A DNA stretch of 64,000 bases from the NCBI RefSeq assembly GCF_964355755.1, contig NC_092670.1:16788795-16852794 (forward strand), given 5' to 3'. Below the pieces are notes generated by a model. The model had not been told where the DNA came from, made no database searches, and was given only the letters and a program-made list of their open reading frames with translations. This document shows positions 3,567 to 51,669 of the stretch, piece by piece. A program made the position numbers and the translations under genes. The first letter of the stretch is position 1. Each line of letters opens with the position of its first letter. Origin of the DNA: Antedon mediterranea. Taxonomy: Eukaryota > Animalia > Echinodermata.

Positions 3567-4867
3567 TTATATATTCTGTGAGCCACATTCCTCCACTTGG
3601 ACTATTGGTAACCATATAGGAGTAGATAAATGTTCATCATTATCAACTGGAGCAACAGGTTTACTAGGCTCTTGGCAGTCAACATTAGAAGGCCTAGAAG
3701 TTGTTTCTGTTGCAGCTGTTTTACTAGGCTCTTGGTAGTCAACCTTAGAAGGCCTAGAAGTTGTTTCTGTTGGAGCTGTTTTACTAGGCTCTTGGTAGTC
3801 GACCTTAGAAGGCCTAGGAGTTGTTTCTGTTGGAGCTGTTTCACTAGGCCATTGACAGTCCTCGGAAGGCCCAAGAGTTGTTCCATTTGGAGATGGCATA
3901 CTAGGCCCTTTGCAGTTATTATCCTTGCTAGAGTTTTCAATGTCATTATTTTGTATCTGTTCTTTTCTTGGTTGCCTAGGTCTTGTTCCTCTGCGAATTA
4001 ATTTAGGTGACTGAAAATCAGTGTTGTCAGACTGATTTGCCATTTTGTTTTTCTGTATCTGTTCTTCTTTCGGAGGGGTCGGCCTCGTCGTACTATTGTC
4101 ACTACAATTAATTAATTCTGGTGATAAACAGCCATTACTTTTTTCTAGTTCATTGCTAGAGTTCATAGTATCACTATTTATCAGTTCATTTCTTAGAGGC
4201 CTAGAATTTCCGTTAAAAACTATGTTAGGCGATTGGCAATTATTGTCCTTTTCTTGCTCATCACAAGAGATCACCAATCCACCATCGCTACTATTCACCT
4301 CATCCTTCTGCGTAGGTCGTGACCCCCTGGCTACCCGTATCGGTGCTGGACTGTCTTTAATCTGTAATTTTTCTTCAGAATTTGATTTCTTTACTTTATC
4401 ATCCTCTGTTTCATTCACAGAAAAAATTTCATCACTGATTGAAAAGGCAGCCAAGGGAAGGATTTCGGTTTCGTTTCGAACATTTTTTTGTTCCGTTTTA
4501 CTATTTTCTGGTGAAAATACTGGCATATTTTCATCGTCTAATTCTATCAATTTTTCGTATGAACTATCTAACTTTGGATCCGCTAATCGAAGTGTATTTG
4601 AAGAACTAAGTCTTGTTCTATCGTTTGATTCGTCCGCAGACAACTCAAAATCAGGTTCATCGCTTAACACAATTGCAGGCACCGGAAGAAAGGCATTGTT
4701 GTTAATCAACTTTTGTTCAGTCATTGCCTTTAGGTCAAGAGATTCATTCGATTCATCATACGATTTCATTTTTTTCCTAGCTACTGGTGTAGGAGACCAG
4801 TGTCCTCTAAATGGGTTAGAGTGACGAGCTTTTTTCCGTAAAGATCGCTGCCTTGGTTTTCTGGTTT
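3567..4867 (-). CDS. Cav3: Cav3 terminal exon: long low-complexity C-terminal tail to stop
   Basis: ORF 3567..4901; ctttcag acceptor in phase 1; assigned to Cav3 by phase and position rather than homology. Confidence 0.78.
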
Positions 4868-7800
4868 CTGAAAGATTAAAAATACACATTTTCCAAGTCA
4901 AAAATATCTTTAATTTTCAAAATATAGCATAAATGTGTTGTTGTTGTATTTCAACTCAGTGCCAATGTGTGATATCATAATTGCATTTAAATTTGATTGT
5001 ATCATTCCTTTCTATTTTATATTTGTAATGTTTTTTATGTGCATTATGTATTTTTATACAGCTTTATATAGTTCTATAGTATTTTTATACAGCTTTATAT
5101 AGTTCTATAGTATTTTTATACAGCTTTATATAGTTCTATAGTATTTTTATACAGCTTTATATAGTTCTATAGTATTTTTATACAGCTTTATATAGTTCTA
5201 TAGTATTTTTATACAGCTTTATATAGTTCTATAGTATTTTTATACAGCTTTATATAGTTCTATAGTATTTTTATACAGCTTTATATAGTTCTATAGTATT
5301 TTTATACAGCTTTATATAGTTCTATAGTATTTTTATACAGCTTTATATAGTTCTATAGTATTTTTATATTTGAATTTCTTAGTTTTGACTGTCAGGCCTG
5401 CAGGCTGAAGTAATTGAGTTTATTTTGCCATCCATAGCCGGCCGATGACAACATTCTTTTTCTTATCTTGTTTTTAACTGTATATATTTATGAATGAATG
5501 AATGAAAAACACTTGCTCTTTGGTTAAAAGGTCAACCTCCAAACTTTGCAACATTTCATATTTAAAGCCCCCTTCACTACGTTTTTTAGATCTAATTTAA
5601 GATCACAAACTATATTTAATGTAAAAATAATACTATATGGTCCTATTGCGATAACTTTTTTCGTCTTTAAACGGTTAAAAATGTGAAAAATAAGTCGATT
5701 CTAATAATTATAGCGGCCCGCTATAAATCCCAAAATGCATTGCGCGCGGATTGATATTTTTGTTTTTCACCTGTAATTTGCCCACTTTTCTATCGATCGT
5801 GAGGCCAAAACAAATGGAAGACTCCTAACTTTTCAGCGAAAATACCGGGTTTTCCCCAATTTGTATTAACGGAGTCTGGCAAAAATAGAAAGACAATTAA
5901 TGCAGCAACTATACAACGTCAGGCTAGGTATATAGCTAGCGTATGATGTTCGTACGTTACCGATGTTTACCAGCTAGGCCTACAAAACTAAGCCTAGCTA
6001 GGCTAGGCCTAAGACCGTCCACGAGAGGTCGATCGCCGCGAGCTACTTAGGTAGTGCATTGTTTCTCACTTTTTATCATAATTTACCATAAAACGTACAT
6101 TTAAGACAAGAAATGACATGGTTTAATGTTTTTAAAGTGATATATATGTATTATTTTCCAAAAAACGTCCAAAATTGCAGGGAAGGGGTCTTTAAGTAAC
6201 TAACCTGCATTGATCTCTGCTTCTGTAGTTGAGCTGTCATTTTCACAATACGGTTTAAAACTAAATGGTAATGACTGAACACGGGAGACGGGTTGTTTCT
6301 GACCATAGAGTCTATGATCCTGTAGATTTTCGCTATGACAACTGTAGCTGGTCATACCCATTTCCATACCCTCATTTTCAGTCTAAAATAAAAAAGAAGA
6401 CAAAAAAGGTAATTATAAGAATGTAACAAATATGGTGATAACAAACATCCACAATTCTTGAGGAAAATGTTTGTGTGAAGTGGGCTCATTTTTACCAACG
6501 TTAGAACAAACACATTAAGCTCTGTCTACATCAAACTTTATGTGACAAAAAATGTGCCCTTATATGGACATGATGATGTCATATCACTACCATATTTGGG
6601 CACATCACACATTATTTTTGTCAAACTAGTTTGCTAGTGTAGACAGAGCTGTAGACAAAAGATGTGACAGTTTCACATTCACTCCTTCATCAAATTTTGA
6701 AGCGGCATGACGTTTTTAGCTATTTAAAATTGTTTTCCATAGTTCAGTACAAAAAAAAATCGTCTGATGTTTCATAAATATTGCATGATTATGATCTTGT
6801 TCCTATTGGTGCGTAAATTTCGAATGAACTTTTAGATTATCGTCCTCATGTCTGGCATGTCACAGTAGCTAATAGTAAAGCCTTTCATCTATAGATTTCA
6901 AATCTCAGTTGTGAAACTTTTAACAATTTAAAATTGTTGCCATAAATGAATTGGTAAAGTTATAAACAATTTAATAGTGCATTGCTAAGCTTAAAGTAGA
7001 TATACAATGCATTAATATCATCTATGAATACATATTATTATTATGAATATAGATCACAAATTATGACTATAATTATTTTGCATAGCAGACATGCTAATTA
7101 TGTTTTGCATTAGCTTGAAACAATTTATAATATCAAGAAAAGACTATACACTAAAGATACAGGTTATTGAATGTGAGCTTATACAAATAAACAATTTGCT
7201 GATATTAGAACTATAATAATATGAAAAGTACTATATTATAATACAGTAGTAAAGAAAAATAATATGTATTACTTTTAAGTTAATATATTTGTGCATAGGT
7301 ATAAAATATACACAAGGTGTGTATAATCTATTAGTGCATGCAATTGATTTGAACAAAAAATGTTAAAAAAAATGCATTTTGAAAAAAAAAATCATCTAAT
7401 AAAATGAAATTCTGTTAAGAGTATATAAATAATTTTTTTAATAAATTGGTGGAAAAGGTGAAAGATATATATAAGAGATAAACTAAAAGTATTATATGAT
7501 GACATAGGTGCAGATCTGTAACTTAGAGTACAGGTCAGAGGTTATAAGATGACATGGGTGCAGATCTGTATGTTAGAGTACAGGTGAGAGGTTATATGAT
7601 GACATGGATGTGGATCTATATTACTAGGGTACAGGTCAGCTATATATCAGACAAGCTTTATTGGGTTTTGGCACTGACCATATGTGCACCCGCCAAAAAT
7701 TGTATTAATGAATAAAAATAACATGTTTTACCAAATGTTTTCTATCATAACCCAGAGAGAGAACGACTTCGGCTGGTGATATAAGCTAATGGACAGAACA

Positions 7801-10800
7801 AAATAGGGAGAAGGCAAACAAAAAACATTAAACAAACATTCATTCATCATTAAAACAATTTAATAAAGGTTAAAGGTTAATTATTAATACTAAAAATAAA
7901 GTACTCATTTTTCATCAATGTTATTTGTCGAAATTGTTTGTTTACTGTTATTAATAGTATCAACTGATTCATTGTGGTTAGGTTAATTAATGTTCTCTCA
8001 AAAAATAAATGTTATTTTTTCTATCAAAGTTGAGCTAATTTCACTCTTCCTTGGTTTAGTGTGTAAACAGTAAAGAGTGAAACATACTCTTTTTTGGTTG
8101 AGTGTGTAATCAGTAAAGAGTGAAACATACTCTTTCTTGGTTTTGTGTGTAATGAGTAAAGAGTGAAACATACTCTTTCTTGGTTTTGTGTGTAATGAGT
8201 AAAGAGTGAAAAATACTCTTTCTTGGTTTTGTGTATAATCAGTAAAGAGTGAAACATACTCTTTCTTGGTTTTGTGTGTAATCAGTAAAGAGTGAAACAT
8301 ACTCTTTCTTGGTTTTGTGTGTAATCAGTAAAGAGTGAAACATACTCTTTCTTGGTTTTGTGTGTAATCAGTAAAGAGTGAAAAATACTCTTCCTTGGTT
8401 TAGTGTGTAATCAGTAAAGAGTGAAACACACTCTTTCTTGGTTGAGTGTGTAATCAGTAAAGAGTGAAACACACTCTTTCTTGGTTTTGTGTGTAATCAG
8501 TAAAGAGTGAAAAATACTCTTCCTTGGTTTAGTGTGTAATCAGTAAAGAGTGAAACACACTCTTTCTTGGTTGAGTGTGTAATCAGTAAAGAGTGAAACA
8601 TACTCTTTCTTGGTTTTGTGTGTAATCAGTAAAGAGTGAAACATACTCTTTCTTGGGTTTGTGTGTAATCAGTAAAGAGTGAAACATACTCTTTCTTGGT
8701 TTTGTGTGTAATCAGTAAAGAGTGAAAAATACTCTTCCTTGGTTTAGTGTGTAATCAGTAAAGAGTGAAACATACTCTTTCTTGGTTTTGTGTGTAATCA
8801 GTAAAGAGTGAAACACACTCTTTCTTGGTTGAGTGTGTAATCAGTAAAGAGTGAAACACACTCTTTCTTTCTTGGTTGAGTGTGTAATCAGTAAAGAGTG
8901 AAAAATACTCTTTCTCGGTTTAGTGTGTAATCAGTAAAGAGTGAAACATACTCTTCCTTGGTTTTGTGTGTAATCAGTAAAGAGTGAAACATACTCTTTC
9001 TTGGTTTAGTGTGTAATCAGTAAAGAGTGAAACTTACTCTTTCTTGGTTTAGTGTGTAATCAGTAAAGAGTGAAACACACTCTTTCTTGGTTTAGTGTGT
9101 AATCAGTAAAGAGTGAAACATTACTCTTCTGTAGTATAATCAAATATAACAAACATAACAATAACAATGAGACCTAAAAATTAGATGAAAAGATGAGTTT
9201 AAGAATTAGAAGAGAAGGATAAAGTACCTTAAGGAGTGGAGTAAGAGCTGAAGCTTCTTCCTGCAGAAGAAAAAAAGAATTGTGCACATAACAACAACAG
9301 TGAAAATAGTGGAGAGAATTATATGCTTCTCATACTAACTTAATTATTGTATAATGCTAGCACACAGGGGTGGATCTAGGATCAAATAGGGCTGCGCTAA
9401 TAGATGCTACTAATTAGTCTGTCAAAAAAAGTAGTTAATTTTAGGTAATCAAATTAAGGTGTTTATATGACAAGTTAGAACACCTCTTTTTGTTCTTTAG
9501 GAACACAGTTATTTATATCTTTTTCTATATTGAAATCAAAATTTAATTTAGCCTACAAATCCTATTTGAACTAAAAGATTATACAGTACAGATTGTCCCA
9601 TGCAAACCTTTATTGTTAAAGTAGGTACCCACAACACATGGGAAGGCATTCCTCTAAAGACATATAGGTAAGTTTACTTTTTTACATTACACACTTACAT
9701 ACTTGATGCTAAATTGACTACAAATACAAAACATCCTCATTTCGGGGGGTGATTAAACTTGCAAAAACAAATGTGAAATATTTGATAGAAGAATGTAGAG
9801 TGGAGAAATAAATAGATGACGAAAATAAAGAAGTGACTTGGAGTCTTGACAAGATATTTGTTTAACATTCACACAAGAAAAACAAATGTGCATACAGTAG
9901 GTCAAAGCTCATTGTGCAACAGTGGTGAAATGTACATCTGAATATACTTTAAGTGCATCATTGAGGAATTCCAACATTCCCCACAATAACTATTATGACG
10001 TTGGCTGTACCTAGTATAGATTGAATTTTTCTATATAACTTTTTGGTTTCAACCAAGACACAACACATGGGACATACTGTAGGTGTAACTCATGTAATTT
10101 GACCAACCATTGATCAATAAATGATGTATTTTTTATCATAATTTATTGTATTAGCAAGCAACTTATAAGCAATACTTAACCAAGTATTATTTAAAGCTTT
10201 TATAATAAATACAAAATCACATAGTTTCTGCCACCATACATAAAGAGCACCAAAATAAATACAGGGCAAGCTTACAGGAGTATTGAGTGCAAATATCGAC
10301 AAAAAGGAATTTTCATTTGTAAATGTACTGTATATGGAGTTATTATAATTTTTATTTAAAAATTCCTTTTTATATAAACAAAATTCAACCAGGGGTGCAT
10401 GTGTGCTCTGTACATCATCATATTTATTATACCTTTTTGCTTTGTTCAGAATTATTTTGCGCATCCTCTGCCTGTGATAAAAAGATATTTACAGCATAAT
10501 TTAACGAACAAATATTGAGGCACCATGCCAACATGTTTCAGCATCCAACAGATGTTACAATTGTGTTGATAATTTTTTTAACATTAATTAATTTTGAACA
10601 AAAGCTAGTTCACACAGCCATACTTCTGACTGCACATATCGTCAGCACCTATCTTGGTATTCAATATGTTTGTGATAGTAGCATGGTTACTCCTAAACAG
10701 TATCAGTTGTAACTTATCTTAGTGACAGAGGATTTTGAAATAGAATTGTAAAATGTACTGAACTTTAAGCCAATGTCCTATGTGCATTGCTGGATTGAAT

Positions 10801-13800
10801 CTATGGGTTGAAGTAACTTTAATACAGAACATGACCAACTATTGAGGGCTACAAATAAACTAAACTTCTACTCCAAGTTTCTATCGTGTTGGAAGATTAA
10901 AATAACAATGTTCCTTTATGATTGCATGTTGCTGATGTTAACTTACTTCACTTTGGGCAATTGCCTCTGCCAGATCTTCCTCTTCTTGAATAGTTTCATT
11001 CTCTAATTTATGCGCTTCATCAAGATGTTTCATCAACACTGCCACCACTACATTCACAAGGACGAATTGCGCCATCAGGACGAACGATACAAAGAACAAC
11101 GGAGCAATTACTGAATTTGCACAACAGTTCTGTTTGCAACTTGCCGATGAATCACACCCATCTGACCTAAGTGTGTCCTGCAAATCAATGAATATGTAAA
11201 TTAGCATATGGATATGCAAATTAGAATATGAGTATGTAAATTAGCATATGAATATAGAAATTAGCATATGAGTATGAAAATTAGAATGAGTATGTAAATT
11301 AGCATATGAACATATAAATCATATGGTTATGCAAATTAGCATATGAATATGTAAATTAGCAAGTATAAATATGTAAATTAGCAAATATTTTTGTATAAAT
11401 AATATTTGTTGGCATGGCATCTTTTGGAAAAGAGTACATACTACTATGGCAATCTAGTCCTTTTTAAGCTCTGTCAATATTCAATGCTTTGGTCTAACAA
11501 CACTAAAAGTTGAATCAATAGTGATGAAAACTGTTCATAATTCCTTATACTCTTGTCTTTGTGTTTAATAACACTCTCATTTTACTATTTACACAGGTGC
11601 TGGAGAGTCTCTTTGTTTTCATCTGTACACTAATCATGCCTTACCTTCATAATACCATTCCAATTATCACCAGTCGCAACACGGAACAGTGTGAGGAAAG
11701 CAATAAAAAAGTTTTCAAAAGAAGCATGCCTGCCAAGACCTTCACAAGGATTGTCTTCAGAACAACCTATGTGTTATATAGAAACGAATAAACAGTATAA
11801 ATAATGATTTTGTTTAGAAAGATGCTCCCTAGTACCATCTGCCATGTTGATTTTATCCCCACCAATCATCATTGCCATCACTGTATTATAAGTCATAATA
11901 TTTAGATAAAATACGGTTCAGTATTACTTCTTACCTAATCGTCCAAATAACTCAACTCCCAAAGCAGCAAATATAAAAAATAAAAGAAAGAAAAGAAGAC
12001 CAAGGTTTCCAACCTGTTGGGAAAAAATTATAAATAAATAACTATCTCATAAGAACATATAAGAAGAAAAACCTGCATTTTTAGGCTAATTTGATAGTAT
12101 GATCAACTGGGCACCCTTGGGCTGGCATTTTGAAAAATAAAACAAATTTGGATGATTAAAAAAGTGAATTTTATTGAGCTATATAATTAGTTTAATTTGT
12201 TACAGCTGGCTGTAATCCCATAGTTAAATATACACCATGTTGTATACAAATTATTTTTAAATATGTCTATATATAAACTGAATTTTACAGTATACAAGTT
12301 AAAGTTATTCCCACGCATTTCTAAAAGCAGATTTGACTTACTATAATTACTACAAAGGTAAAATCTATATATAGCAACAGTATAAAACTACAAAAACAAT
12401 ACTAAAAAATAATACTAAGAAAATAATACGCAACTATATAAAAATGTTATTTAGGTTTTGTTGATGAAAATCATCTGACAAACAAAAATAACTATTATGT
12501 CATGGATGATGTCATAGATTCCAACAGGCTGTGCCAATTACAGCACTTTCAATCACTAAATACGTATACTGTATGGTCAAATATTTATTACTATATTTTG
12601 TAAAATTGAAATGAATACTCCACAATGTTTACCTGAGGAAAAGATTTCTGTACAGTGTACAAAAGGGTACGGATGCCATGAGCATACCTTAACAACTTGA
12701 GAACTACAAAAGACATAACATGCAAAGAAAATGGAGGGAAAAAGCAGACAATAACACTATTAAACAACATGCAACATCAAAAAAATCTATACTGGTAGTC
12801 TATAAACAACATTCAATCTCACGTTCTCAAAAGCATTAAAAAAATTTTAAACAAATGATTATGTGTTTGAAACAAGAGCATCCAATTGATTGTTTTTCTA
12901 TGTTTTGAGAACATGTGTTTGAAGTTACATACTACAATAAAAGCTAGTACAATTACATTTCAATTCAACATTGATGTTTGATGAAATATCCAGAAATTTA
13001 AAGCCATAAGTCATCAAGCAACAGTTTGTCATAATTGTAACTAAGATTGAGGTCAACAACGGATCCAGCTGACCTACTTTTTTATTGTTGAATTGTATCA
13101 CATTGTATGTGACATACATCAAGATCAATTCAAGAACATGTATGCATTTCAATAATGGCATAATAACAATAAGCATTTGATTTTAACATTTAAATACTTG
13201 TCTCGTGCAAGATCCCATGGAAATGTACATACAAGTGACAAGGTACAGGAAATAAACATTGACTTGGTGCTGCATAAGCTTCTTGATGTCAACAATATAC
13301 AGTACGACAATCAACATACATTTCACTACATTATCAGTACATTCATGCACTGTATAGCTAATATGCAAGTGGCAACAATACATCTCTAATGTAAACCATC
13401 TTTATGGTGTAAATACAGTGAGCACAGCATGCTAGGAGGAATGGGTAATGGGTATTAAAATACATGCCAAATTTATGCCATGTACTCTCGACATTACCTG
13501 TGGTATCGCACCCATCAATACACCCAACAGCTCACGTAAACCTTTCATAGCTTTCATTATTTTTAACACTGTAGTGTCAAAGGTCAGCGTAGAAAAAACA
13601 ATATATTATGAATATTAAAAGTAAGAGGAGAAGAAATTGAATTTGTAAATTAAAGAGGTGTATATAGACAATAAAGAATTAAAGCTTTTTCTGTTACTAT
13701 AAACATACTGTATGATATTCAATATATCACTGTACTAACTTACCTCTAGCAATTCTTAAAACCCTCATAACACGTATAATGGTTGGATTAATTGGAATAA

Positions 13801-16800
13801 CATCGCCTTCTACTTCTTCTAAACCAATTCCAATAATTGACAATATTACAATCATCATATCAAGTTGATTCCATCTATAAATACATAAAGAATAATCAAT
13901 ATTAAAAAACAAAATTTAAATTAATATAAGAAATATGAAGGCAAAACTATTCTGGGACTTTGATATGGATTGTAATGATGATGATGATGATGAGGATATT
14001 GGTTATAATAATAATGATTAGCAATAACAATTCAATGACAAAATGATGATTATATATGAATATTAATAATTGGGATAAACTTACTTGTCTTTTATATAGC
14101 GTTTAAAACTGTAGGCATATATCTTCAAAATGGCTTCCAGAACGAATACAACCGTAAACACATAATTAAAATAGCGTAGAACTTCAATTAGAAGCTATAA
14201 AAGTAAAAAAAAATTAAATTTGAAAATTGAAAAAATGTGAAATATATATATATAGAGGTTTCAATTAACAAACAAACCAACCTGTGGCATATCATAGAAT
14301 TCCATTCCCATGGTGATGACATTTAGAAAGATTATAGAAGCAATAATAAGGTCAAAGTATTTGCTTTCAACCATAGCATGACATCGCCGTCGTGTTCTTC
14401 CGTAATCATCCCAGTAATTCGGCTCAAGCCTTCCTAAAATGGGATTAAACAATAATCTATATATCAACATAAATATATTTAGAACAATAAATGTTGAAAT
14501 GAGTGAATAATAATAAATGGTGATGAAGGGAAATGTGCTTGTTAAAGGTCAAGTGATTGTTTTGATTATTACCAATCTGTTTCTTTGTTTATCTTACATA
14601 GCTAAATATCATATGCAATCATGCTATAGTATAAATAGCTGCAAGCAAATTCATACAATTTATGTAACATTGTGCTATTAAATATTATCATATATAATAT
14701 TTGCAGACTTTAATGAATATCATTAAATAATTATTAATAGAAATCAGAAAATAAGTTAGTAAACACCCCAAATGCCTAGTACCTTCATAGATAATTCCAC
14801 CACCAAAATTTCATTAAAAAAAATAGTTCACAAATGTTTAGTGTGTTACTTTGATTGTATTTTCTAAGAGTGTAAAGTGAATTGTGAACAAGCCATAAGG
14901 CAAGTTAGTTATATAATTTAGCTTTGTTGAAGTAAACAAATAGAGAGTAAATAATGAGAATTTAAATTTAACAAACACAGCATAACCATTATAGGCAGGA
15001 TTTAAACTACTAGATTTTGTTATATGTTCAAGCAAAATATTCTTTATAATTACACAAATTTCAACAGCAAACAACAAGTTAAAATCACAGCAACAACAAA
15101 GAGAAAACAAAAACTAACATATGCAAAATTGTTATTTCATTTTAGTGAAGCATATGCGTGGTGTATTTTAACAAATAGATATATGTTTAATCATCCACAC
15201 ATTACAATAAAACAGAAAACAAACAAAAAACAAAACATAAATTAAATGGTATGAGAATAAATTTATGAAGTAATTCAAGTGTCATCAAATTTGTAGCTGC
15301 GAATGTGCAATTTGAAAAATTTGAAATAAAAATGATGTTTCTGATTGGTTGGTTTGTGGACAATTCAGGTGAACTAGACAAAGATGGTGATACAAACCCA
15401 GCTCTGGAATTTGCATACTAAGTCTCAGTTTCTCAATGCGACGCAATCGTTTAAGTTCCCGCATCTCGGCTTCTTCAATTGCCTGTTTTTCTTGACATTT
15501 ATGAAAGTTCTCCACGACAACTCCGACAAACATGTTAAGGACGAAGAAACCAACGATCAGAAGGAATGAGATAAAGTAGATGATTAACCATTCATTGTTA
15601 TCTCGAATAGGCTGAAAAATAAAAACAAATTCATTATAAACCACAACTGAATTTATTATGCTCAGAAGCTTTCAATAAAAAGTTGAAATACATATTTATA
15701 CATTTTAATTTATCTAGAAAGTTTGATTCGTAAACATGTTAATCAAAGGTCAAATGTCAAAGGCTTAACAAATTTACATACTTGTTGATCGATACCAACT
15801 GAATCAATGCCATTATACATAATTTCTACCCATCCATCTTTTGATGACAACACAAATAATGTCATTAAAGCCTGCAAGAAAAAATTGAGATGTTTAAAAT
15901 GATGGTAAAAGAGGTTTGTGATGGTTACAGCAACTGCTCTATTTGTACTTTGGTAATAAATGTTTGTTATGGAGATAACTGCTCTATTTGTACTACGGAT
16001 GTAAAACATGCCTACAGCTACTTCAGCACATTTTTCTGTATTGCAGTAAAAATCAACACAATACTAACTAGAAAGCCACTCCGAGAGTGCATACCTCCGC
16101 CTACTGTAAAATTCTCCTACATAAGATTTCTCCGGTAAAAAAAAAATATATATATATTTGTGTGTGTCTTAATGCTGTTTGTGATTTAGGCTAATTTCAC
16201 TACAAGCATGTGTATGCGAGTTTGGTGTAATGGTTATATAACAAGCCTTTCAATTAACAATGGCTTCAGTTGACTAACAATAGAACAGCAACGCGAAAAT
16301 CAAACGAGTGAATTTGAAAAGAAAATAGGTTTTTTAAACTACTGGCATCAAAAAACGTGAACATTAAATCAAATTATGTTTTAAAATTACAAATTATAAC
16401 TCTTGCCTCTTGTACAAAAATGAAGTTTTTTGGACAAGTAGTTCTCGAGAAAATGCAATTTCAGTATACTTGTTACTTTAAGACTGCTCGCTGTCCTATT
16501 TATGTCCTATCTTTTAACACTAGCAGGTCTGAAAAGTATACTAAAAAGTGGTCCAGAATTGGGACAATGGTCCCAAAATTTAATGGAATGGTCCTTGACC
16601 ACATATCTATCTGTATATTCATTTTGGTAAAGATCTTGTAATTACTTTTTGAGTAATCCTGCTAACAAACAAACAAACACACGCTACCGATTACATATAC
16701 CTCCTTGGCGGAGGTAAATAATAATATTCTGCATTTATAAAACACGTAAATTTGTAAAACCTCCAAACTCTGTACATATTATCACCCAAGTCATTTTTGG

Positions 16801-19800
16801 ATCAAACACATATGGAAACATACTGTACTCCCATAATGTAGCTGGAAATCAGCGCAAAGTTGTGTCTTTACCTTACCAGGTATCACTGTATGAAAACTAA
16901 CCGAAAAACCAGGATAAAAGATAGTCTAAAGCCCTGTCTACACTATCAAACTTCATGTGACAAAAAATGTGATGTGCCCATATATGGACATAATGATGTC
17001 ATACAACTACCATATTTGGGTACATCACACTTTTGTTGGCAAACTAGTTTGATAGTGAACACAGAGCTTAAAAGGAAAGCAGCTATGACTTACCTCTCCA
17101 ATATTGTCAAAGTTATACTCTTGGTTTATCCAATGGAAGCCCATATCCTCACATTGCGTTCTGTTTCGTATATCTCGTATATCTTTTCCAACACAGTGGA
17201 AGAATTTACCTTTAAATAACTACAAGAAATACGAAAGAGACATTAAATATACTTGGCTAAATTGGTGCATAGCTACCGTAGAGCAGAAAAATATGAAAGG
17301 GACATTAAGTAAATTGGTGATATAGCTACCGTAGAGCAGAAAAATATGAAAGGGACATTAAGTAAATTGGTGATATAGCTACCGTAGAGCAGAAAAATAT
17401 GAAAGGGACATTAAGTAAATTGGTGATATAGCTACCGTAGAGCAGAAAAATATGAAAGGGACATTAAGTAATTTGGTGATATAGCTACCGTAGAGCAGAA
17501 AAATATGAAAGGGACATTAAGTAAATTGGTGATATAGCTACCGTAGAGCAGTAACATATGAAAGGGACATTAAGTAAATTGGTGATATAGCTACCGTAGA
17601 GCAGTACATTAATTAAATTGGTGATATAGCTACCGTAGAGCAGTACATTAAGTAAATTGGTGATATAGCTACCGTAGAGCAGTAACATATGAAAGGGACA
17701 TTAAGTAATTTGGTGCTATAGCTATAGTAAGGAAAAATATTTGTACAAATAGATATATTACCTGAATTCCTAGGATACCGAATATAATGAAGAATGTACA
17801 GCAAATAAGCACAATGTTGCCAATGGGACGTAGAGAGGAAAGTAATGTCTGTACTACTAGTTTCAAACCTGGTGCTCTGCTTATCACTCTGTTTATGAAA
17901 ATAAAAAACATACTTAGAAAGATTATTTTAATTGTTTGAACCAAATTCTTTGGGACCTTGTTTTCTAAACATAATTTCCAATTTAAATCATCCACACAAC
18001 TTACTATGACTATATAACTAAGCTCCTTGTACTATCTGTCAGATATGTTCAAAATAGACCTCAAAGTCACTATTGTACCTGCCACAGTTTCCTAATGGTC
18101 TTGTACTGTATTGACAGAGTACAAAACAATCAGTCATTGTATTGTACCATAATGGTCTAAGAGTACTTACCTTAATGGTCTAAGAGTTCGTAGAAGTCGA
18201 AAGATTCTTAAAATTCCAAAAATATCTGGGCTAGATTGAGATGCTAGAGATATGCAAATGTCAAGCCAAGAAATGAATACAAGAAAACCATCCATGACGT
18301 TCCAACCACTCCGCAAGTATGCATGCTTTCCGATTGCAAATCCTTTTGCTACGATTTTCAGAAACATTTCAATCGTGAATAAAACTGTAAAAATGTAGTT
18401 GGTTATGGTTAAAAATGTGCGTTCCTGAAAGAAAGAAAAGAAAATGTCAATGATACTGACAATAGACAACGTCAATAATGATGGTGACAGTGAAGCTGAC
18501 AATGGTGACAATTATGTAGATGATAATGATGTTGGTGACAATTATGTGGATGACAATGATGTTGTTAAAATTGATGTTGGTGACAATTATGTGGATGAAA
18601 ATGATGTTTATGAAAATGATGTTGGTGACAGTGACAATTATGATAATTGCGACATGATGCTTATGGTAATGAGGTGGATGTTGATGTTGGTGACATTGAT
18701 GTTGATGACATTGATGTTGATGTTGGTGACATTGATGTTGATATTGGTGACATTGATGTTGATGTTGGTGACATTGATGTTGATGTTGGTGACATTGATG
18801 TTGATGTTGGTGACATTGATGTTGATGTTGGTGACATTGATGTTGATGACATTGATGTGAATATTGGTGACATTGATGTTGATGTTGGTGACATTGATGT
18901 TGATGATGGTGACATTGATGTTGGTGACATTGATGTTGATGATGGTGACATTGATGTTGGTGACATTGATGTTGATGTTGGTGACATTGATGTTGATGTT
19001 GGTGACATTGATGTTGATGTTGGTGACATTGATGTTGGTGACATTGATGTTGATGTTGGTGACATTGATGTTGATGATGGTGACATTGATGTTGATGATG
19101 GTGACATGATGGTAGCACATATGCTAATTATAATGACAATGATGGTGATAATGATAACAGTGATGTTGATGATGGGAACATGATGCTCATGATAATGATG
19201 GCGATAGTGACAATGATGTTGATGAAATTGACAATAATGATGATGACAATGTTGTTGCCAATATTGCATATAATAACAAATATTGTGGTTGTTTCCATAC
19301 CCAGTCATCATCTTGAATGGAAGGTCGTTCCATGGCCAGAGTAATACAGTTGAGAAATATAACAACTAGCACCATGTAGTCAAACCACTTCTTATTGATC
19401 AAGTACTGAATATTATGACGGAACCTGTGAAAACAACAAAAAAGTAATAATTACACATATCTATAAAAAAAAAAGAGCATATCTATTGTACATACCTATT
19501 TAGTCCTTTAATTTTTAAAATTAATTAGTGGGCCTATAGTGTATCACGGTGCTGACGTCACGACAGTAGGTGGCGCTGCGTGGTTGCTAGCGCACCCAAA
19601 AATGCGTTCAACCTGCCTGAGTGACTTTAAGGTCACCAATGGTTTGGAATAGGCTTATTGAAGTAGTCATTTTAAAACTTAATCATTTTCAATAAAAACA
19701 AACTAAAATTTCAAAAGATCACTAAATATTTGTTTTTAATAATCTATTTATTCTTCAACTACCGTTTAAGTTTAAAAAAATCAAGCTAAGATAAATAATT

Positions 19801-22800
19801 TGATAGAAATACAGATCTGTACAGTTTATCAACATAGTAGCGTTGAACGCATTTGTTGGTTGGCTAGCAACCATGCAGCGCTCTCTATCGTTGTGACGTC
19901 ACACCGTGATACTCTATATTGTGGGGGATTAAATCTGACTATAAAATTAATAACATAATACTCGCTTGTTTTTTGGTGACAGAAGATAGAGGGAGTATTC
20001 TTGTCTTGTGAGAAAGCACCCATGTGGCTCTGGTAAACACTTGCCAATCATTGCAAACAAGTCACAATCCTACAAGAAAAAATAAGTATATAAGAAAAAC
20101 ACAGATACATACCTGTACTTACTCACTGTACTAAGTACTTAAGATTTAATTAAGATAATATAATTACACGTGAATACAACAGTTTAATTATTATAATACA
20201 AAAATTAACACCAATGAGAATTTGTTATAACATTGATCTCGGATTAAAATCTAAGAAACGTAAACTTGTTTACAAGGAATCAATCTGGAATATAGAAATG
20301 TTATTATACATATGTTTCATAAATTATTACATACTGTATGACAAGGCGATCGGATGAAACATGATACTATGATTAGTAAGCATTATAACAAATGCACACC
20401 TTACTTGTTATTAAGGAGTTTTGAATATCACTAGACGCCATTCTAGACTACAAGCATTAGAATGAACATAATGAAAATGTGCCACAAAACCTTACTGACT
20501 CAATCAGCACAATTTGAAAATTGGGTATTCATGTCGTAAACATTATTGTGAAATTTAAAACTCGATAATCAAAATCACTAAATTAACATACTACACTATT
20601 GTTAATACAATATCATTAATTAACATACATTATACAGTAGTCTGGAATATAAATTATATTGTAAATATTAGTGTTTAAACAACAACTAATTATTATTACC
20701 TGTACTCTCTCCTACGGTAATATAATAATTGTAAAATAAAAATTAAAAAATAATATTATGTATCACGAAGGAATAAAGTAGGGTAGTTTAAAAAGTAGAG
20801 ATGGGAGACGATCTAAGAATGTTAAGGGGAAAAGATTTAGTTTATACATGGGAAAGAATGTATAAAAAACAAATTGTTAAAAACAAAGTAATTTTTCCCC
20901 CAGTCTCAAATGTTATTTGTTCATAGTTTGATATTTAAACATTCATTACTTGTGTTGATCTATTTCACCACCTGTTTCAACAATCTATTTAATTCACATT
21001 GTATATTCGACCAATCCATTAAACCCCTCATACTCTGATGACATTTTAAGTAAATCTTACTGTGCATTCTTAATAATGGAGAACATCACAATGTTATTAC
21101 TATGAATGTTATTGTATTATTAGTCAAAACAAGATAATCTTTTAATAACACATTCTATATAATAAACTTAAATTGCAAAAGCACAATTCTTGTTTCTTAT
21201 TTGAATTTGAATACATCAACATTTTTCAATAATTTTAATTTTGTTGTTTATTTAATGCACACTGCCAATAAAGATAAATAAAGACTAGAGCCATAGGTTG
21301 AGATATTGTCAAACCTGGAATTACCATTCAGGGTAACCATGCCTATTACAATATGTTATGCTAATATAGTGCAACTTGAATAATATGTGCAAGGAGGCCT
21401 AAATATAGGGCAATAACATTCATCATATTTTAGCATTGTTAGGAGGCCTATGTTCTTGTGTGCATTAGGAGAAGGACCTTGATTACCCCACAACAAATAC
21501 TGCAGCAATAGTCATCGTTGAACTGTCTGGATGAAGAGGCTATAGTGGACATGTCAGGCGATACTGGAGCCTTAGAGTCAGAAAGAATAAGATCACAATA
21601 TGACAGGATTATCACACATAAAACTCATGCGTCATTAAATGGCATAGCATAATAATACAGTTATAAGTACAATTTTAACCGAACCAAGATAAGTGGGGTC
21701 TTCTTCTGTGAATAACTTTGATGTACAGTAACATGGGTGCAAAGTAGGCTGACAACAATCTGACAGCATGACAAGCTGACAAAAAAAATGTAATGTAATG
21801 AAATTTATTTATTTTTTTTACTTACACCTTCATCTATAGCATCAGGATCTTCAATATCGGCATCATCTGCTTGATTTAACTCTTCGCTTGGTCGAATCAT
21901 AGAGTTATCCTTTGTAGGCAATGACATTGGACGAACTGTCTGACTGATCGGTGGTGCCAGTCCATTACATGAACAAAAGGAAACCCGTCTACTGTCTCCG
22001 TTGCAGATGGAAGACCTACGACTGCTCTCGTTGTCAGGCACGTAGCCATTGTGACTGGAAACATCTTGAGATCTAAAGAAATATTTTTAAAATATTGGTT
22101 GTGTAACATATTGTTATTAAAAGTAGTGGATTACCAACATCTTTGTAAACTTGCAGTTTAGTTAGAATAACTTCAACTCGGTTATAATATAAATTCATTT
22201 TCACATCTCACCTGCATATACTTAAATGACTGCCGTCACTGTCGTACATCCTAAATGGACTCAAGAAGTTTCCGTTGATTGGCTTAGACTGAATGGCGCC
22301 CTCACTTTGTACACTTCGAGCACTCCTGGCACTTCCAGACCTCCGCAATCGTGGAGAACCTCGTAGAGATTGTGTGTTCTATTGTGAGACAAATATAATT
22401 GTTTTATTACAGCAAAAGAGTAATTGTCCAAGATATATTTTTGCCTTACAGTAACATATTATGCTATACATTATCAGTTTAAGTTGAAGATACATCTATC
22501 AAAGATTTCTGTGTTGTTGTGATACCTGTATAAAATAAATGTATGTCACTTACCACTGAGAGTGTATCGATTTCTGCATCTTTGATATTAATTACTGGTT
22601 TAAGCTCATGGCTGTTTTCAGAATGTGGGGATCCTTGTGGGGTGGCCTCTGTGTGGGTTATCATTGGAGGGCTTTGGAGTTGGTTGCCTGTGTTTGATGC
22701 AAGTATCGAAGATGAAAAAACTAAATAGAAAAGAAATTACATATAGTAAAAGGGCAGAAAAAAAAATATAAAAAGTCACAGAAAATTCCGAGAACAGTGA

Positions 22801-25800
22801 TAGTGAATTTGCAGAAATGTAGGTAAACAATCTTGGGGATAAGAATTGGTGTGGGTGGCAAGAACAGTCAAATGGAGGATATACTACTGTGTATACAGAG
22901 GAGTCATTTTGTATTTATTTCATACTATCAACAGTTTTCCCCGAGACCTTACTAATACATGGATGGAAAAATGTGAGCACCAGAGCTGTTTGAATCTCAT
23001 TTCAATTATAATCTTTACCATTATTCTTATGTGCTTCTTCCATACAACAATATTCTTGGTTCAATCTGTTCTCATCTGCTTCCATCTCAAAATCACCTTC
23101 ATACTGCTCCTCCTCCTCATCGGTCTCAGAGTTTTCCTTTTTCTGATCACCCTATTCATACAAAAACAAATGTGTAAATGTCCTCATTAAAGTTAAAAAC
23201 AAAATAAAAAAATAACAAAAATATTTATAGTAAACATGACCTGGTCACAAGCACATTTATAGATAGCAATTTAGGTATAAATATTCATTTGAAAAAAAAA
23301 GCATTTTGGCATTCTTTCTTCTTTTTCCCTATTCATACAAAAACAATGTTAAAACAATGTCAAAATAAAAAAATATAAAAAGTATTTATTGTAAACATGA
23401 CCTGGTCATAAGCACATTTTTAGATAGCGATTTAGGTATAATTATTCATTTGAAAAAGAAGCATTTTGGTAGACTAGAGCGAGAATCTAGTTACGAACAA
23501 AAAAAAGCACCTGCTGGCAGTTCTTACAAAGGAAAACTAAAGAATAATTAACAATATGTTGTAAACCTCAGTTTCGCCTCAACATCTTTTAAAGATTTCT
23601 GTGTAAAATATATATGATTATTTATTGTTAGATTCCAAAATGTATTTTAAGTGGAGAGAGGCACTCTATGTCAACAGATAATTCTTAGTCATCTCTCTAT
23701 GACGGTTGTCACATAATGCTTTGTACTTCTTTCTATTTAAAAAAATTGTATTTATATATTATATATATATTCACGGACAGTTTGTCTGAAAGTTGAATTG
23801 AATTATTACTATGAATAACAGAATTGTTTTGGCTTTTACTAGTAAAAAACATAATTTATTTAAGTGGTAAAGTTTTCCCTTTCAAAGTATCCTATTATTA
23901 GTTATACTGTATTTGAAATCTTTTCATTACAGCATTCAAGTTTTCTGATCAGTCGTTACTATGGCAACTGATGTTAATAATGTTTTGACGTCAAACTGAT
24001 CATTTTGCTCCGGTTTTAAACAATTAACCAGACAGGTATCATCTTTCTTTCATAGCAGCTTAATTAATGATAGAGAAACACATTCACGTGTCAAAACACA
24101 GTATATAGGAATGGTTAGTTCAAACCATCTGTTAAGATAACAGATATCTATCTATTTAATCTATCAAAATAATAAACAAGTTTATCAGTCATTCTATGAA
24201 TTAATTAAGTGAATCTTTCTTAATTTAACAGCATTTTGATTGGTTTGTATTTGGATCCTAAAATCCAATATTGCATTTTCCGATTTATTTTTACATAGTA
24301 GTAACAAGCCTCTGTCATGCTCAGAAGCAACACACACGTTCAACTTTGACCTGAAGTTATTGGAACATTGGACATTTAGACAATATGACATTTACAGACA
24401 ATACTATGGGTGACCAGATGCATGCAACTACACATTCAATTACACAATGATGTTGAAAAAGCAGCTATGAGATTTTACAACATTAGCTATTAATACAGAC
24501 CAGATAATAAAATGGTTACAAAACAATTTAACAAGGACAAACAATTTTAATTTATGATTAAAGTTTGAATGTTATTTGACATTGACAACAACATATAGTT
24601 TGGGTTAGAACATAATCCTACAGCACATTAGTTAGTGGTTTAAAGTGGTATAAAAAAAATCAGCACTAATAGAGTTGTTAAGAAATTAAAATAATTAGTT
24701 TTCAAGAAAATTAAAACACAACTTATGTCAGTGACAGATCCAGGTACAGCATGCCTATCTCCCATCCCCTCCCCTACCCATTTCATTAACACTTTGAATA
24801 TAAATACAAGTAGTTGAGCATTAACAACAGTGGATGGACATGGCCCTACTGGTGGGTTACCCAGCATCACCTCTCTAGTTAACTTACGACAGTGAGTACC
24901 CATGATAACAGACCCAGTCAGCTCTCTATTTGAGTCAAAACAGTGGATGGTCAGGCCCCAGAGTTGATTTATTCTGTACCACCTCTCTGAGTCACAACAG
25001 TGGATGGGCATAGTACTAAAGGTGCGATACCCAGTATCACCTCTCTAGTTAAGTCACAACAGTTAATACCCATGGCCGCAGACCCAGTATCACCTCTCTA
25101 CTTGAGCCTAAACAGGGGATTTTCAGGCCCCAGAGTAGCATTTTCCAGTATCACCTCTCTATTTGAGCCACAACAGTGGATGGTCAGGCCCTAGAGTTGC
25201 GTCACCCATTATAACCTCTTTATTTGATCCACAACAGTGGATGGTCACGTCCCAGAGTTGCGCTATCCAGAATCACCTCTCTATATAAGCCACGCCTGCA
25301 GATGGTCATGGTCCCAAATACCCATTAATAACTTTCTGAATCTGCCACTATATATATCAATGAACATCTATATATACATTATCACATGTACATATATCAA
25401 TACAACAACTTACCCAGAAGGTTAAAATAATGTTGGAAGATACAGCAATACAAATGATATATTTGGAAGCAATGAAAGAATATTAAATTATTAATATAAT
25501 GATTCAAGATGTTATTAATGTAAACTTATTAGCGATCAAGGTTGCCACATTATTTTCACCTCACATCATTATTTTGTTTTAAATTGAGACAGTTAAACAG
25601 TTTCGTGCCATGGTCTCAAAGCACGATTTGTGAGAGTAAATAAATCAAAAATAATTTGAAAATTCACTTTGTTATATTGATTTATTAATGATAATTAATA
25701 AAGCATAACCACATATACTGTTGTTAAAGCATTAATGTTGTTGGCATTTAATATCAATACAACAGCGAGGAGCACAATGACATTTTTATGAGTTTGTGAT

Positions 25801-28800
25801 TCTCCAATGAGTAATTTAATTGATAAATGAAAATGTTATTTGGACAAAAAATGCTAATATGGGCTGTATGAAGTCCCTGAATGTTAAGTTTTGTTGTATT
25901 TAAAACGCGCAAGACAGAAAACTGCATTCATCTCTTCTAAAGACATTTCATTCATTAAATATTTTGACTTTGTAAATAAGAACAATATCTCTATTAATGT
26001 CTTTATCAAGAGAGCACTATAAGAACACATCTACATGTAAGGCTCTCATGTTTTACAGGATGGGGCTTAATACGTTTCAGTTGTGATTTATTTTCATATA
26101 AAAACAATAATATTAACATTAATATAATAAATAAAAACATTAATAATCTTGCAGCATATTAGCAAATGTAGAAATACCTCTTAATTAATCTTACAATAGC
26201 ATTACTAGTATATTAAAAAAAGTTGTAAAAATAGTACTGCTTATATTAGTATTGCTTGTGTATATCTGTGATCCACTTACGGTATTAACATCAGTAATGC
26301 TAATATTAAACTGAAAGTGTTATCACATAAAAGACAAAAGTAAACGAATATTAAATACAAATTGTAACTAATACTAAACTAAAACTAAGTTAAACAAAAA
26401 TAATATCATTGCCTCACAAACATGTACAATGTTCGTATTTATGCATATAGCAGTAGTTGCTACAGTATGAAACTCTCGAATCAATGACAGATGGAGAGTA
26501 TTATAGCTGCCAACCAGGAGATAAATAGCTGATATCGAACAGAAGAAGTTACATTCATACAGTTAAAAGTACTTTAATTAGAATAACTATTTATTTTATA
26601 CTGTACTTATTGTTAAAGTTATTTTTAATGTTGTTATTATTATCATCATCATCAAATCAATTTACAAATATTGCACATACAGTATAATATTACTTTTCTA
26701 CAAAGTTAGAGAAAATTATTACCGACAGCATTGCTTATTCAGACAAAGTTAAAACAAAAGGCGTACAACAAAAATGAAACCAACAATTATATTTGTAATA
26801 TTTTAAAAACTATCTAAATTAATGTAAAAGCTATCATATTGGCTTTTGGAGGTTAATCTGCAATTGACCTATTTTTTTTTGGTAAATTGGAAATTAGAAA
26901 TTGGAATACAAATTTTGAAGTGTATAAAGATAATGTTACAGCGGTTGATGTATTTCCCATATTAGTAAAATACATTGAACATAAAAGCTACAGCAGATAT
27001 TCACTTGCAGAGCCTATCAAAGTAATGCATACATTTTATTCTTAAATTCAACAGTTTTTTTTTTTGCTTCAGTTTTAAAAATTACATGTTCTACCTTGTT
27101 TTTGTCTTCTGTTCGAAACTGTAGACAAAAAACTTGTTGAAATTAATAATTTTGCACCAGAGTTAGGATGAACATAGATGGTTAAATATTCAAATATTCC
27201 ATTTAAAACAAACAACTAAATGGTAGGACGATTTGGTGCTACTCGAACAAGCTGAAATGAGGTCACCAAATCTAAATTTCTGAACAAATTTATGGACAGG
27301 ATGATGTCATATCACCAAATTTAAGCATATCACTACCATATTTGGGCACATCACACTTTTTTGTCACATAAAGTTTGATAGTGTATTGATGTCGCTGTTG
27401 GGATAAGACGTACTCGACGCGAACTCCTGGTTAACCATTAAACTCTGTATGCTACAGTGAACACGATATGTTACCGACGTCGAAACGAAGCACACGTGCT
27501 AAGGCTACCACTCCAGCCAGCCCAGACCCGCCAGCTCTACCTGAACAGGAGATGGAGTTGCTCGGCCTAGACTTTTAAAAATTTGTTCAGGATTCTTTTA
27601 AATCTGTCCTACAAGGCCAAGCTCAAATAAGAGAAGATCTAAGCAAATCCATTGAATTTAATTCTGAAAAGATTGCAGTGCTTGAAACGAAAGATAAGGC
27701 GAGAGAATCAACGCTAATTAGCATTTCAGCTGATGCGAGAACAACTAACTGGCTGCCATCTTGAAATTAAAAGAGCCGAACGTTTTTCAAGACGAAATAA
27801 CATCAGGCTTGTTGGCCTTGAATTAAATCCTGGCGAAAATTGCATCTAGATTGCAAACAGTATTTTAAAAAAACATTTCACGCTGTCAACTATCCCTGTT
27901 ATTGAACGAGCGCATCGAGCTGGACGGGGAATGAAAGGTAAATCACCTCATATCTTGGTACGTTTTTTATCTTACGTAACTAAAATTGAAATCATGAAAC
28001 AACGACATGATGCTCTTAAAGATGAAGTGTTCTATATTATAGACGACCTCACCCCAAAAGATCTTGCAGAAAAAAAGAGATGGAAAGACCGAGTCAAAGA
28101 GCTATACAAGGAAAATGGCGATCAACCATCAATAACCTTTTGGTATCACAAAACTTAAATACATAAATTCAACTTTAAGCAGAACGCCTATAGTATATAG
28201 TACACCAACAGACGAATTTCATTTACTAACATGATTATTTATTGATAATCATCTTATTTTTTAAATATTTGAGTCATTTCCAAAAACATATGTTGAATAA
28301 ATACTACAGGACATAATTTTCTCAGAAAACAGCCTTTAAATCAATTAATATGACAGATCTGATAGCAAATATGATTATTTATTCATAGGATCACACATTA
28401 ACTAAAATGAAATGATGGATTCTTATCAAATGTGTTACTACACAGACCTGCTTTAAATTAGTATTTATTTACTCTGTGCGCCCTAGTGTAAAGTGGGTGG
28501 TAAGTGGTAACACCTTTTACGAATGTTGTCATTTTGTCAGTGTACATAATTTACAATTAAAATATTTCTAACCAAGTTTAATAAGACTGAGTACCAATAT
28601 ATATATACTGTATAAACTGGAGTGAATTGATATCAAATGACACTTTTCAGTAATTTGAATAATTAGAAGGTTTCTAGCCAAGTTATAATACAGTACCAAT
28701 ATATATATACTGTATACTGTATATACAAACTATAGTGAATTGATATCTAATGGCAATTACGTTCTGAATAATAACTATTTTTCAAATTGTATATACTACA

Positions 28801-31800
28801 GTGTGTACTCAAATCATGCATTACTAATCAATTAAATGTCATAGTAATTGTATGATGAATCTGGGCAGATTAGAACACATGACCTCAGGGTTAACATCTT
28901 AACCATAGGTTAAATAGCCATATAAATCTCTGTCTACATTATCAAACTAGTTTGACAAAAAAGTGTGATGTGCCCAAATATGGTAGTGATATGACATCAT
29001 CATGTCCATAATATGGACACATCACATTTTTTTGTAACATAAACTTTGATAGTGTAGACAGAGCTTTACACCATCATGAGTACATAGATTTAAAAAAATA
29101 AACGTACCTCAGCAGCAAAACCTTCAACCAATATTGCCACAAGAAGGTTGAAGAGAACATAGTTACCAAACGTCATGAGGGCAATAAAATACAAGGCAGC
29201 CCAGGCAGTGGTTTTGGACATGCCATTATAAAGCACAATATTCCAGTCCTCTTGGGTTAAAATCTAAATAGAAGAAGTCAGAATAAAATGAATCAAATGT
29301 GTGTGCGTGAGGTGCAGTGTGTTGAACGTGATCATGAGTTAGAATCTCAAGCTCTTCGCATTGCTTGTATCCTTAGGCAAGATACTTTTCTTACGTTTGC
29401 CCCTCTCCACCAAGGTTTACAAATGGGTACCTGGCAAAGATCATAAACCAAAAGTGCTGATTAATTGCTTCAACATCCAAAACATAACCAAGGTAAAAAT
29501 GTAAAGTGCTTAAAGGCTTTATGCATTTAATATACGCGCTATATAAGATTGCGCTATATAAGATCGCACTATATAAGATCGACATATATTGGTCTACACA
29601 GTCCCTCCTGTAACAGGAGTACAGTAAACTTTCCTAAACTGGTCTCCTTCCAAATAAAAAAACACCTTAAAACCAGAATCTGAAGATCGCAAATTATAAT
29701 GAAAGTCGGCGATAATATTTCTTACTTGGAAGACAGTCACAGTTGCCCATAGCAAAGAGTCAAAGTTTTTGCGATCACATTCCTGGGTTCCATCATCGAG
29801 ATCGTAACAGAATTTGCAACCAAACAGATGCATGCCCAAAATACTGCAATAAAATATTCAAAACATGCTCAACAACTAGTTCGCCATTTAAGTACAATTT
29901 CTTTCGTATACAATTTATGTTTGTAGTTTAGGTAAATAACAGCTAGTTTTCCAAGAAAGTAATAATACAGTATCTTGTGTAAAAAAGTTCTAGAGTTCTA
30001 TTAATAAGAGTTGAAACCTTTTAACTTAAATAATGTGGTTGTTGTTCTTAGATCGATACAATACCAATGTTAATATTACAAGAAATTTACGATCTAGGTT
30101 ACACTTACAGTCTAACATCTCCCAATGCTGTAAAAAGAATATTTAAATCTATAACATTTAACCTAACCTATATATATATATACCAACCTAAAAATGAATA
30201 TAAATAAGGCCAGGAGGGTGAAGAACGTAGCAACATTATCCATCGTTTTCAGCATAATAAGAAGTTGACGACGTAACGCTGGCATAAACCGCACCAACTT
30301 CAGGATTCGGAGAAGTCTGAATGTTCGCAACACGGTAAGACCACCCTCACCATTTTGAGCAATCTCAACCACACTGAAAACAATATTTGTATAGTTAAAT
30401 TAGATTACTAACCAATGTTAATGAAATGTTGAAAACTCAACCGTGGACCTCTAGTCTAATTCAAATTGTTTCAACTTATTGGACACAGCTTTCTTTTTTA
30501 CAAATATTTTCAAAAAAATAACTATGCATATCTTTATTTAACTACAGACTTTTAAGTGATTTGTCGTCTCCCACTAAAGGTGCAATGTCTATCGATTATT
30601 TTAGATACAAATTAATCCAGAATTTTCATAAATTTAGCATTTAGGCTCTACTACATTGGCGACACACATACAGCTCACTATGACGGTCGGATGGTCGGTC
30701 GGATAACACTAAATGTGAGCATGCGACTGCACCAATGTATATGGCCTTGTTTACTAAAGAATACTGATGAACAAGAATTAGCCGCTCTCTAATTGAATGT
30801 ATTTTAAAACAAAAATACCTGATGATAACTATAGTTCCATCAAACACATTGAAGCCATTGCTAACATAACCTATCAAGCCATAGGCTAAAATCTTCAGAA
30901 TCATCTCCAATGCAAATATACTGGTAAAAATAAGGTTGCTTATTTCAATAGCCTGCGTCAATTCCTCTGGCTAAAAGATACAAATATACGACGAATTTAA
31001 ATAACTTTATAACATACAATGATACAAAATGCTTATACAGTAGAGGTAAACAGGGAGCAGTAAAAATGTGTGAAGGGTAGGTTTATAGAGTTTCATAAGA
31101 ATTTGTGGAATAAGAATCTTTTCTTCCTATTACAGGGTATTTTGCCATGGTCTAATGGTATTCATAGGCAGTTCCAGGGGGAGGAGGAGGCAGTCAGTCA
31201 GATCACTTATTCCCTAACCCTTAACCGTCTCCGTCAACCTAAATTTGGAAAATTAAAATGAAAAATGTAGTACATAAGGTTAAGTTCAGCTTATTTTACA
31301 ATTGTTAGGGACTGTTCCAGCACTGTATCTGTATCCTTAACATACAAACACCATTTCTGGTGATCGTTGGTCAGGAGTCAAGTGCAAGAAGATAAATTAA
31401 TAGCAAAGTGCACTTTGTATTTTCAATGTCAATGGGGCTCAATTTATTCTTAAAACTGGCTAGGTTTGGTGCCATTCTTATTCATTCATTTTACTTTTAT
31501 TTCGGAAACGGACGTCAATATCTACAAAATCAATTGCAGAAATAAGTTTAAATAAAATAGGCAGACATGTACAATAGCAGTCATAGGTTCTAATCCTACA
31601 AAAGATCAAGTTTTCATACAAGGGAAAAAATACAATATTGGTTGATGAGGTAATGTTTAATACAAGTGTGTTATTTACAATTAGTATAGAAGGCATTAGG
31701 TACGTTATCTAATCATAATAATTTGTCTGAAACCTTTTGAGTTGATTACTCATTCTCAGCCAGTTTAAGATTACGATATGAAAACGATTGCGAAATAGCA

Positions 31801-51633: not shown

Positions 51634-51669
<36 letters not shown>

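Follow-up and report, generated by a model that had tools for sequence, protein, structure and literature searches.

The Cav3 (T-type) channel gene of the echinoderm Antedon mediterranea carries two adjacent, alternative versions of one short exon. This locus raises the question of whether both versions are used, whether they are used one at a time, and what the choice between them would mean for the channel. The window analysed here is a stretch of 64,000 nt from contig NC_092670.1; the exon that comes first in the direction of transcription is termed exon A and the following one exon B, and the features are collected in Table 1.

Table 1. Features of the Cav3 gene in the analysed window
Feature	Coordinates	Strand	Remarks
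Host gene, four-domain Cav3 T-type channel	3570..55298	minus	approximate span of the coding exons seen; ends provisional
Domain I pore-loop exon, copy 1, 93 nt	41893..41985	minus	
Domain I pore-loop exon, copy 2, 93 nt	41290..41382	minus	
Constitutive upstream exon, 131 nt	13744..13874	minus	S3, the S3-S4 loop and the bulk of S4 in domain IV; donor in phase 1
Alternative exon A, 71 nt	13498..13568	minus	derived domain IV S4 end and S4-S5 linker
A-B intron, 794 nt	12704..13497	minus	five GCATG; candidate Rbfox-type switch, function inferred
Alternative exon B, 71 nt	12633..12703	minus	derives from the canonical Cav3 linker of domain IV; highly divergent in Antedon
Constitutive downstream exon, 79 nt	11935..12013	minus	domain IV S5

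The host gene encodes four domains of six transmembrane segments, its closest relatives are Cav3 channels, and its pore-loop exons give E, E, D and D at the filter position, the EEDD selectivity ring that serves as a criterion for Cav3 (PMC4436565). In a maximum-likelihood tree of 14 proteins (of 22 rows; LG+G4, 1467 columns, A/B segment omitted from the window row, no crinoid or ophiuroid in the set), the window gene is placed within the echinoderms (100/99) and outside the asteroids plus echinozoans (89/93); an AU test rejected its grouping with Saccoglossus (p 0.0002) and did not reject its grouping with the two asteroids (p 0.09). Such a placement agrees best with a crinoid and would also be compatible with a brittle star. 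Judged by its sequence it is an echinoderm Cav3 (T-type) gene, for which a low-voltage-activated, transient current is predicted from its family. As the upstream exon matches domain IV of the human Cav3.1, Cav3.2 and Cav3.3 chains (E 3e-12 to 6e-12), the A/B pair encodes the end of the domain IV S4 helix and the S4-S5 linker. The window also holds an open frame inside a Cav3 intron (27850-28155, plus strand), which by eye looks similar to part of a LINE-type ORF1 protein, a short dispersed repeat with several intronic copies (about 58700, 57400, 45900, 29050, 27400 and 17050), and tandem arrays at 17700-17220 (unit of about 53 nt) and 9000-8240 (unit of about 43 nt).

The two exons are homologous and equal in length and phase, and each is preceded by AG and followed by GT. 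Their positions on the minus strand, intact splice sites and 24-residue peptides had been proposed in an earlier note made from the sequence, and all of these were verified. Placed singly between the upstream and downstream exons, either A or B keeps the domain IV S3-S4-linker-S5 frame continuous; when both are skipped a stop follows at 63 nt in the next exon, and when both are included at 15 nt in exon B, just as expected from the note's claim that both-or-neither inclusion breaks the frame. The premature stops of these double and empty products precede several exon junctions. A profile built from 35 distinct non-A Cav3 segments and scanned over the 1730-nt intron between the constitutive exons scored 65.5 for B and 59.7 for A, and the next frame reached 15.5, a value also attained by shuffled sequence (best scores in 200 shuffles with a median of 10.1 and a maximum of 27.8). 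Since A and B score far above chance and the next frame remains within the shuffle range, a third copy is absent from this intron, in agreement with the earlier statement that no canonical one is found there. An assembly artefact, either unmerged haplotypes or a misjoin, was considered as a source of the pair and rejected: the two copies share 9 of 24 residues and just 29 of 71 nucleotides, and both types occur in single-gene isoforms of three other species.

Besides the A/B pair and a pair of domain I pore-loop exons, no duplicated exons were found in the gene. The domain I pair preserves the frame and spans the selectivity-filter glutamate together with the acidic residue four positions later; its two types are either/or in isoforms of Lytechinus variegatus, Patiria miniata and Acanthaster planci, with 11 differences in each species, and the first type is present in the Strongylocentrotus purpuratus models. 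One Saccoglossus model is devoid of the domain I pore-loop exon and another has an intermediate form, and hemichordates might have a duplicated version of this exon. The domain II turret exon (29843-29726, minus strand) is single and has three cysteines (12a type), and no 12b turret copy was found in the window gene.

For the use of both linker exons, the evidence comes from predicted gene models of other echinoderms. Among the first 339 proteins retrieved, 272 of them with the segment, A. planci XP_022091428 was the sole representative with a linker close to exon A of the window (22/24 identical). Within the isoform sets, one protein with the A form and 11 with the B form were identified among the 12 isoforms of L. 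variegatus, and the same numbers among the 12 of P. miniata; A. planci has nine A and two B isoforms out of 11, and L. pictus contributed one A protein and two further fragments without the segment. Isoforms X1 and X3 of L. variegatus, X1 and X2 of P. miniata and X1 and X2 of A. planci are equal in length and differ at 13-14 positions, all of them inside the 24-residue segment. Comparison with X1 in these three species, all represented by predicted RefSeq models, showed no isoform with both exons or with neither. Examples of the event are XP_041474171, XP_038064368 and XP_022091426, which are unlabelled and carry isoform numbers only; RefSeq isoforms are usually backed by RNA alignments. Mutually exclusive use, as proposed in the note, thus has its counterpart in same-length A-or-B isoforms predicted in three echinoderms. 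The A form was found in none of the 15 S. purpuratus proteins listed (17 in the cluster) and in none of the two Diadema and three holothurian proteins with the segment, and in these animals it may have been lost or may be unannotated.

For exon A, disuse or disabling mutations in relatives had been named as grounds for doubt; its use is annotated in relatives, no disabling change was seen, and its form is identical at all 24 positions in 12 proteins from four species and two classes, comprising an urchin genus and sea stars. Exon A of the window matches the A form of Lytechinus, Patiria and Acanthaster at 22 of 24 positions and, with 92% identity to urchin and sea stars, is among the best-conserved exons of the gene, compared with 62-67% for exon B; the downstream exon is 100% identical to those of four other echinoderms over 26 residues. 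The sequences therefore indicate an old pair that is real and conserved, whose tandem-duplicated copies are alternatives to each other in the gene models of urchin and sea stars. A conserved A versus a drifting B across echinoderm classes is a pattern that the earlier note did not contain.

To place both forms, 584 proteins were reduced to 402 with both flanking anchors at a 24-residue spacing, of which 346 were non-echinoderm (48 distinct segments). In these 346 proteins, from cnidarians to humans, 17 of the 24 segment columns are at least 98% constant. The A form changes six of the 17 constant columns (positions 4, 5, 8, 17, 18 and 22) and five variable ones, and the window B changes six of the seven variable columns as against three of the 17 constant ones (6, 21 and 22, all conservatively; Fisher p 0.0037), with no stop and no indel. 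Identity to the protostome form is 15/24 for the window B, 18-22/24 for the B forms of other echinoderms and 13/24 for A. Since the changes in B avoid the constant columns, B appears to descend under constraint from the ordinary linker, and A to be a derived form that was subsequently frozen; at the protein level both copies appear to be under purifying selection. The suggestion that both exons diverge from the Cav3 consensus needs to be refined in one point: B descends from the canonical linker, and A is the derived form.

Outside echinoderms, the A form was absent from the 346 proteins with the segment, where the best match was 13/24 and most gene models represent one isoform. Among representatives at 50% identity, each of which represents a whole cluster, none of 140 new proteins (150 of 211 matches listed) had it, with a best match of again 13/24, and metagenome contigs scanned for exon A relatives yielded 521 pattern matches, none of which was confirmed. 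Five non-echinoderm clusters with multiple members contained a single form each among the members with the segment (cephalopod 3/13, coral 12/15, spider 11/15, Macrostomum 3/4, hagfish 6/7). The retrieved Saccoglossus proteins covered the N-terminal half only, and the domain IV comparison included no hemichordate, crinoid or ophiuroid. A Cav3-like protein from Logan has a strongly divergent domain IV linker that resembles neither A nor B. It is plausible that the exon was duplicated before the split of echinoids and asteroids, about 480 million years ago. Copy A would then have gained approximately 11 substitutions before its sequence stabilized, and copy B would have drifted within the ancestral pattern.

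The drift of B could be read in another way, namely that in this species B is decaying or rarely used and A is effectively constitutive. Among the B forms compared, that of the window has indeed diverged furthest (15-16/24 identical to those of other echinoderms), and seven of its residues do not occur at their positions in any of the 346 non-echinoderm proteins; however, it retains an open frame, the exact length and canonical splice sites, its changes spare the constant columns with three conservative exceptions, and both forms are annotated in three relatives, and such a decay is considered very improbable. Among solved structures, exon B is matched best by the domain IV linker of Cav1.1 (13/21, E 0.4-0.8, not significant), ahead of the Cav3 chains, and no match to exon A was obtained up to E 10. 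Residues T13, K20, S21 and F22 of B and its aromatic residue at position 16 follow an L-type pattern that is rare or absent in the 346 proteins. Convergence of exon B toward a linker of the high-voltage type is possible.

With regard to the channel, both forms retain the last two basic residues of S4 (positions 3 and 6), together with Gly10, Arg12, Leu14-15 and the Pro-Gln end. In A, Asp16 is lost and Glu13 gained, by which the acidic residue is moved by one helical turn, and Met8, Val17, Leu18 and Gly20 are added; A is also more hydrophobic (0.47 vs 0.23-0.28), and its amphipathic moment is 0.43-0.44 vs 0.51-0.57 for canonical forms, with a similar direction. The relocated acid, the hydrophobicity and Gly20 would be expected to alter the pull of S4 movement on S5/S6. 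The segment corresponds to residues 1725-1748 of human Cav3.2 (offset 237 from the 9AYG chain, with V1689 and A1705 landing on Val and Ala), and Table 1 of PMC6929700 lists the Cav3.2 variant T1733A, at segment position 9, as gain of function. The variant A1705T was likewise considered and set aside, as it sits in the S3-S4 loop outside the segment. In human Cav3.3, replacement of the domain IV S4 and 5-8 linker residues by those of Cav1.2 shifted half-activation from -45.4 to -29.6 mV and accelerated deactivation; this chimera altered S4 plus part of the linker, and the share of the linker was left open by its authors (PMC5825144). Because changes in the same segment shift the gating of human Cav3 channels, the A and B forms, with 13-15 differing positions, are likely to differ in gating as well, in a direction that is not predictable.

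A different role for the pair would be that both exons are real and used, but that A mainly changes modulation by lipids or partners, or trafficking, or makes the channel silent or poorly coupled. The simultaneous alteration of six near-constant positions in A exceeds what fine tuning needs, the invariance of A from urchin to sea stars could reflect a binding surface, and the linker is located at the inner face of the membrane. All changes in A nevertheless fall within the coupling helix and the S4 end, where the chimera and the single substitution shift human Cav3 gating, and A keeps the S4 charges and the amphipathic axis of the helix, so that a role of this kind appears unlikely. The preferred reading, which is considered probable, is that the two exons provide two used isoforms that differ in gating, in voltage dependence or kinetics: the choice between A and B would swap the domain IV helix that joins the voltage sensor to the gate, giving two differently gated channels.

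For the control of exon choice, the A-B intron contains five GCATG motifs (starts at 13467, 13432, 13348, 12772 and 12723), of which three are TGCATG. Of the five, the first three follow A at distances of about 30, 65 and 150 nt and the last two precede B by 69 and 20 nt; the introns flanking the A-B stretch have none. Five motifs in 794 nt compare with 0.61 expected at the gene-wide rate and form the densest cluster in the gene; this number was reached in one of 510 sliding windows and in 0.85% of 2000 dinucleotide shuffles, and the three TGCATG were matched by 5.8% of shuffles. GCATG was first noticed by eye and is the third-ranked 5-mer in this TG-rich intron. Rbfox binding downstream of an exon usually enhances its inclusion and upstream binding is associated with repression (PMC11874969), although effects in paralogues can go in either direction (bioRxiv 10.1101/2025.08.16.670673). 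The layout follows this position rule, with sites after A (activated) and before B (repressed), and an Rbfox-type protein bound to these GCAUG elements would in some tissues favor the inclusion of A and repress B. Such a switch in favor of A at the candidate sites is put forward tentatively, as a possibility that falls somewhat short of an even chance.

In the earlier note it was suggested that NMD could enforce exclusivity, and the corresponding rival for the splicing step is that the choice of exon lacks regulation, or is dictated by RNA structure or steric constraints, with exclusivity arising from NMD alone. The frame arithmetic behind this proposal is right: double and empty products both stop early, upstream of several junctions, and under the 50-nt rule NMD would clear them. 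Exon A and its downstream intron can also pair (-37.2 kcal/mol), but this fold is not clearly unusual (z -1.71, equalled in 11 of 200 shuffles), and intron-intron duplexes were no stronger than those of shuffles in a coarse single-species test. NMD was reported to play no leading part in the exclusivity of human SCN exons 5a/5b, which have the same frame logic (bioRxiv 10.1101/2025.08.16.670673). From this analogy and the candidate Rbfox switch in the intron, NMD is probably a back-up only, and the rival as a whole is regarded as doubtful. Several specific mechanisms found no support: steric hindrance, given the 794-nt intron and an AG just 54 nt before B, which leaves no room for a far-upstream branch point; minor-spliceosome incompatibility, as all donors are ordinary GT types when set against the U12 consensus; and a weak A acceptor, whose pyrimidine share of 0.61 falls within the 0.56-0.94 of 20 constitutive acceptors.

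If the preferred reading of two differently gated isoforms is correct, exon A would represent a natural and viable redesign of the helix coupling sensor to gate, one that breaks six near-invariant columns. What underlies low-voltage gating was described as elusive to date, and the domain IV linker was singled out there as untested (PMC5825144); a swap of 11-13 residues into human Cav3 would be a direct test of this linker in low-voltage gating. The pair also bears on the excitability of echinoderms, which were reported to be without Nav1 (PMC6259924) and whose starfish eggs gave early recordings of T-type current (cited in PMC5379919). A more far-reaching scenario, for which the odds are low, is that A is an echinoderm invention that creates a second channel class, e.g. 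higher-threshold, fast-closing or slowly inactivating, switched on by Rbfox in neurons or muscle and combined with the domain I choice to give a spike current in a phylum reported to be without Nav1. Were this so, the 11 substitutions of A would pinpoint the linker basis of low-voltage activation and slow closing.

Among known systems, the A/B exons belong with the tandem, and in their case probably mutually exclusive, exons of four-domain channels, at a position and in a lineage for which no report was found. Exons 5a/5b of the Nav channels are located in domain I. These vertebrate exons resemble A/B in being duplicated, equal in length, not a multiple of three and accompanied by clustered TGCATG, and they are under Rbfox control; however, they belong to sodium channels, and their motifs follow the second exon and act with an RNA bridge, whereas in A/B the motifs lie between the exons and no bridge was found (bioRxiv 10.1101/2025.08.16.670673). 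The NALCN pairs 15a/15b and 31a/31b are likewise duplicated, mutually exclusive exons of a four-domain channel and are present in echinoderms, but they are part of another gene and, unlike A/B, change a selectivity-filter residue (PMC4436565). Within Cav3 itself, the splicing described in the available portions of PMC5379919, PMC4436565 and PMC7382465 consists of 12a/12b, 8b, 25c and 26, none of them in the domain IV linker, and a pair in this linker goes unmentioned in the available portions of PMC12149502, PMC8373072, PMC6259924, PMC10761187 and PMC13095418. Full-text searches of mainly open-access papers returned no published description or functional study of the pair. Exons 8b, 25c and 26 similarly tune T-type surface expression and gating through splicing, but they are optional insertions in cytoplasmic loops and, unlike A/B, are neither duplicated nor in the coupling helix (PMC5379919). 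The closest parallel in the family is the 12a/12b pair of Lymnaea LCav3 and other protostomes, in which tandem mutually exclusive exons give two channel types from one Cav3 gene (PMC4436565, PMC5379919, PMC7382465), as is probable for A/B. The Antedon pair lies outside this group, being situated in domain IV of a gene with a single turret exon: 12a/12b encode the extracellular domain II turret and affect Na/Ca permeation, whereas A/B encode the intracellular end of S4 and the S4-S5 linker of domain IV. Thus the known invertebrate Cav3 pairs change permeation, and the A/B pair would change coupling.
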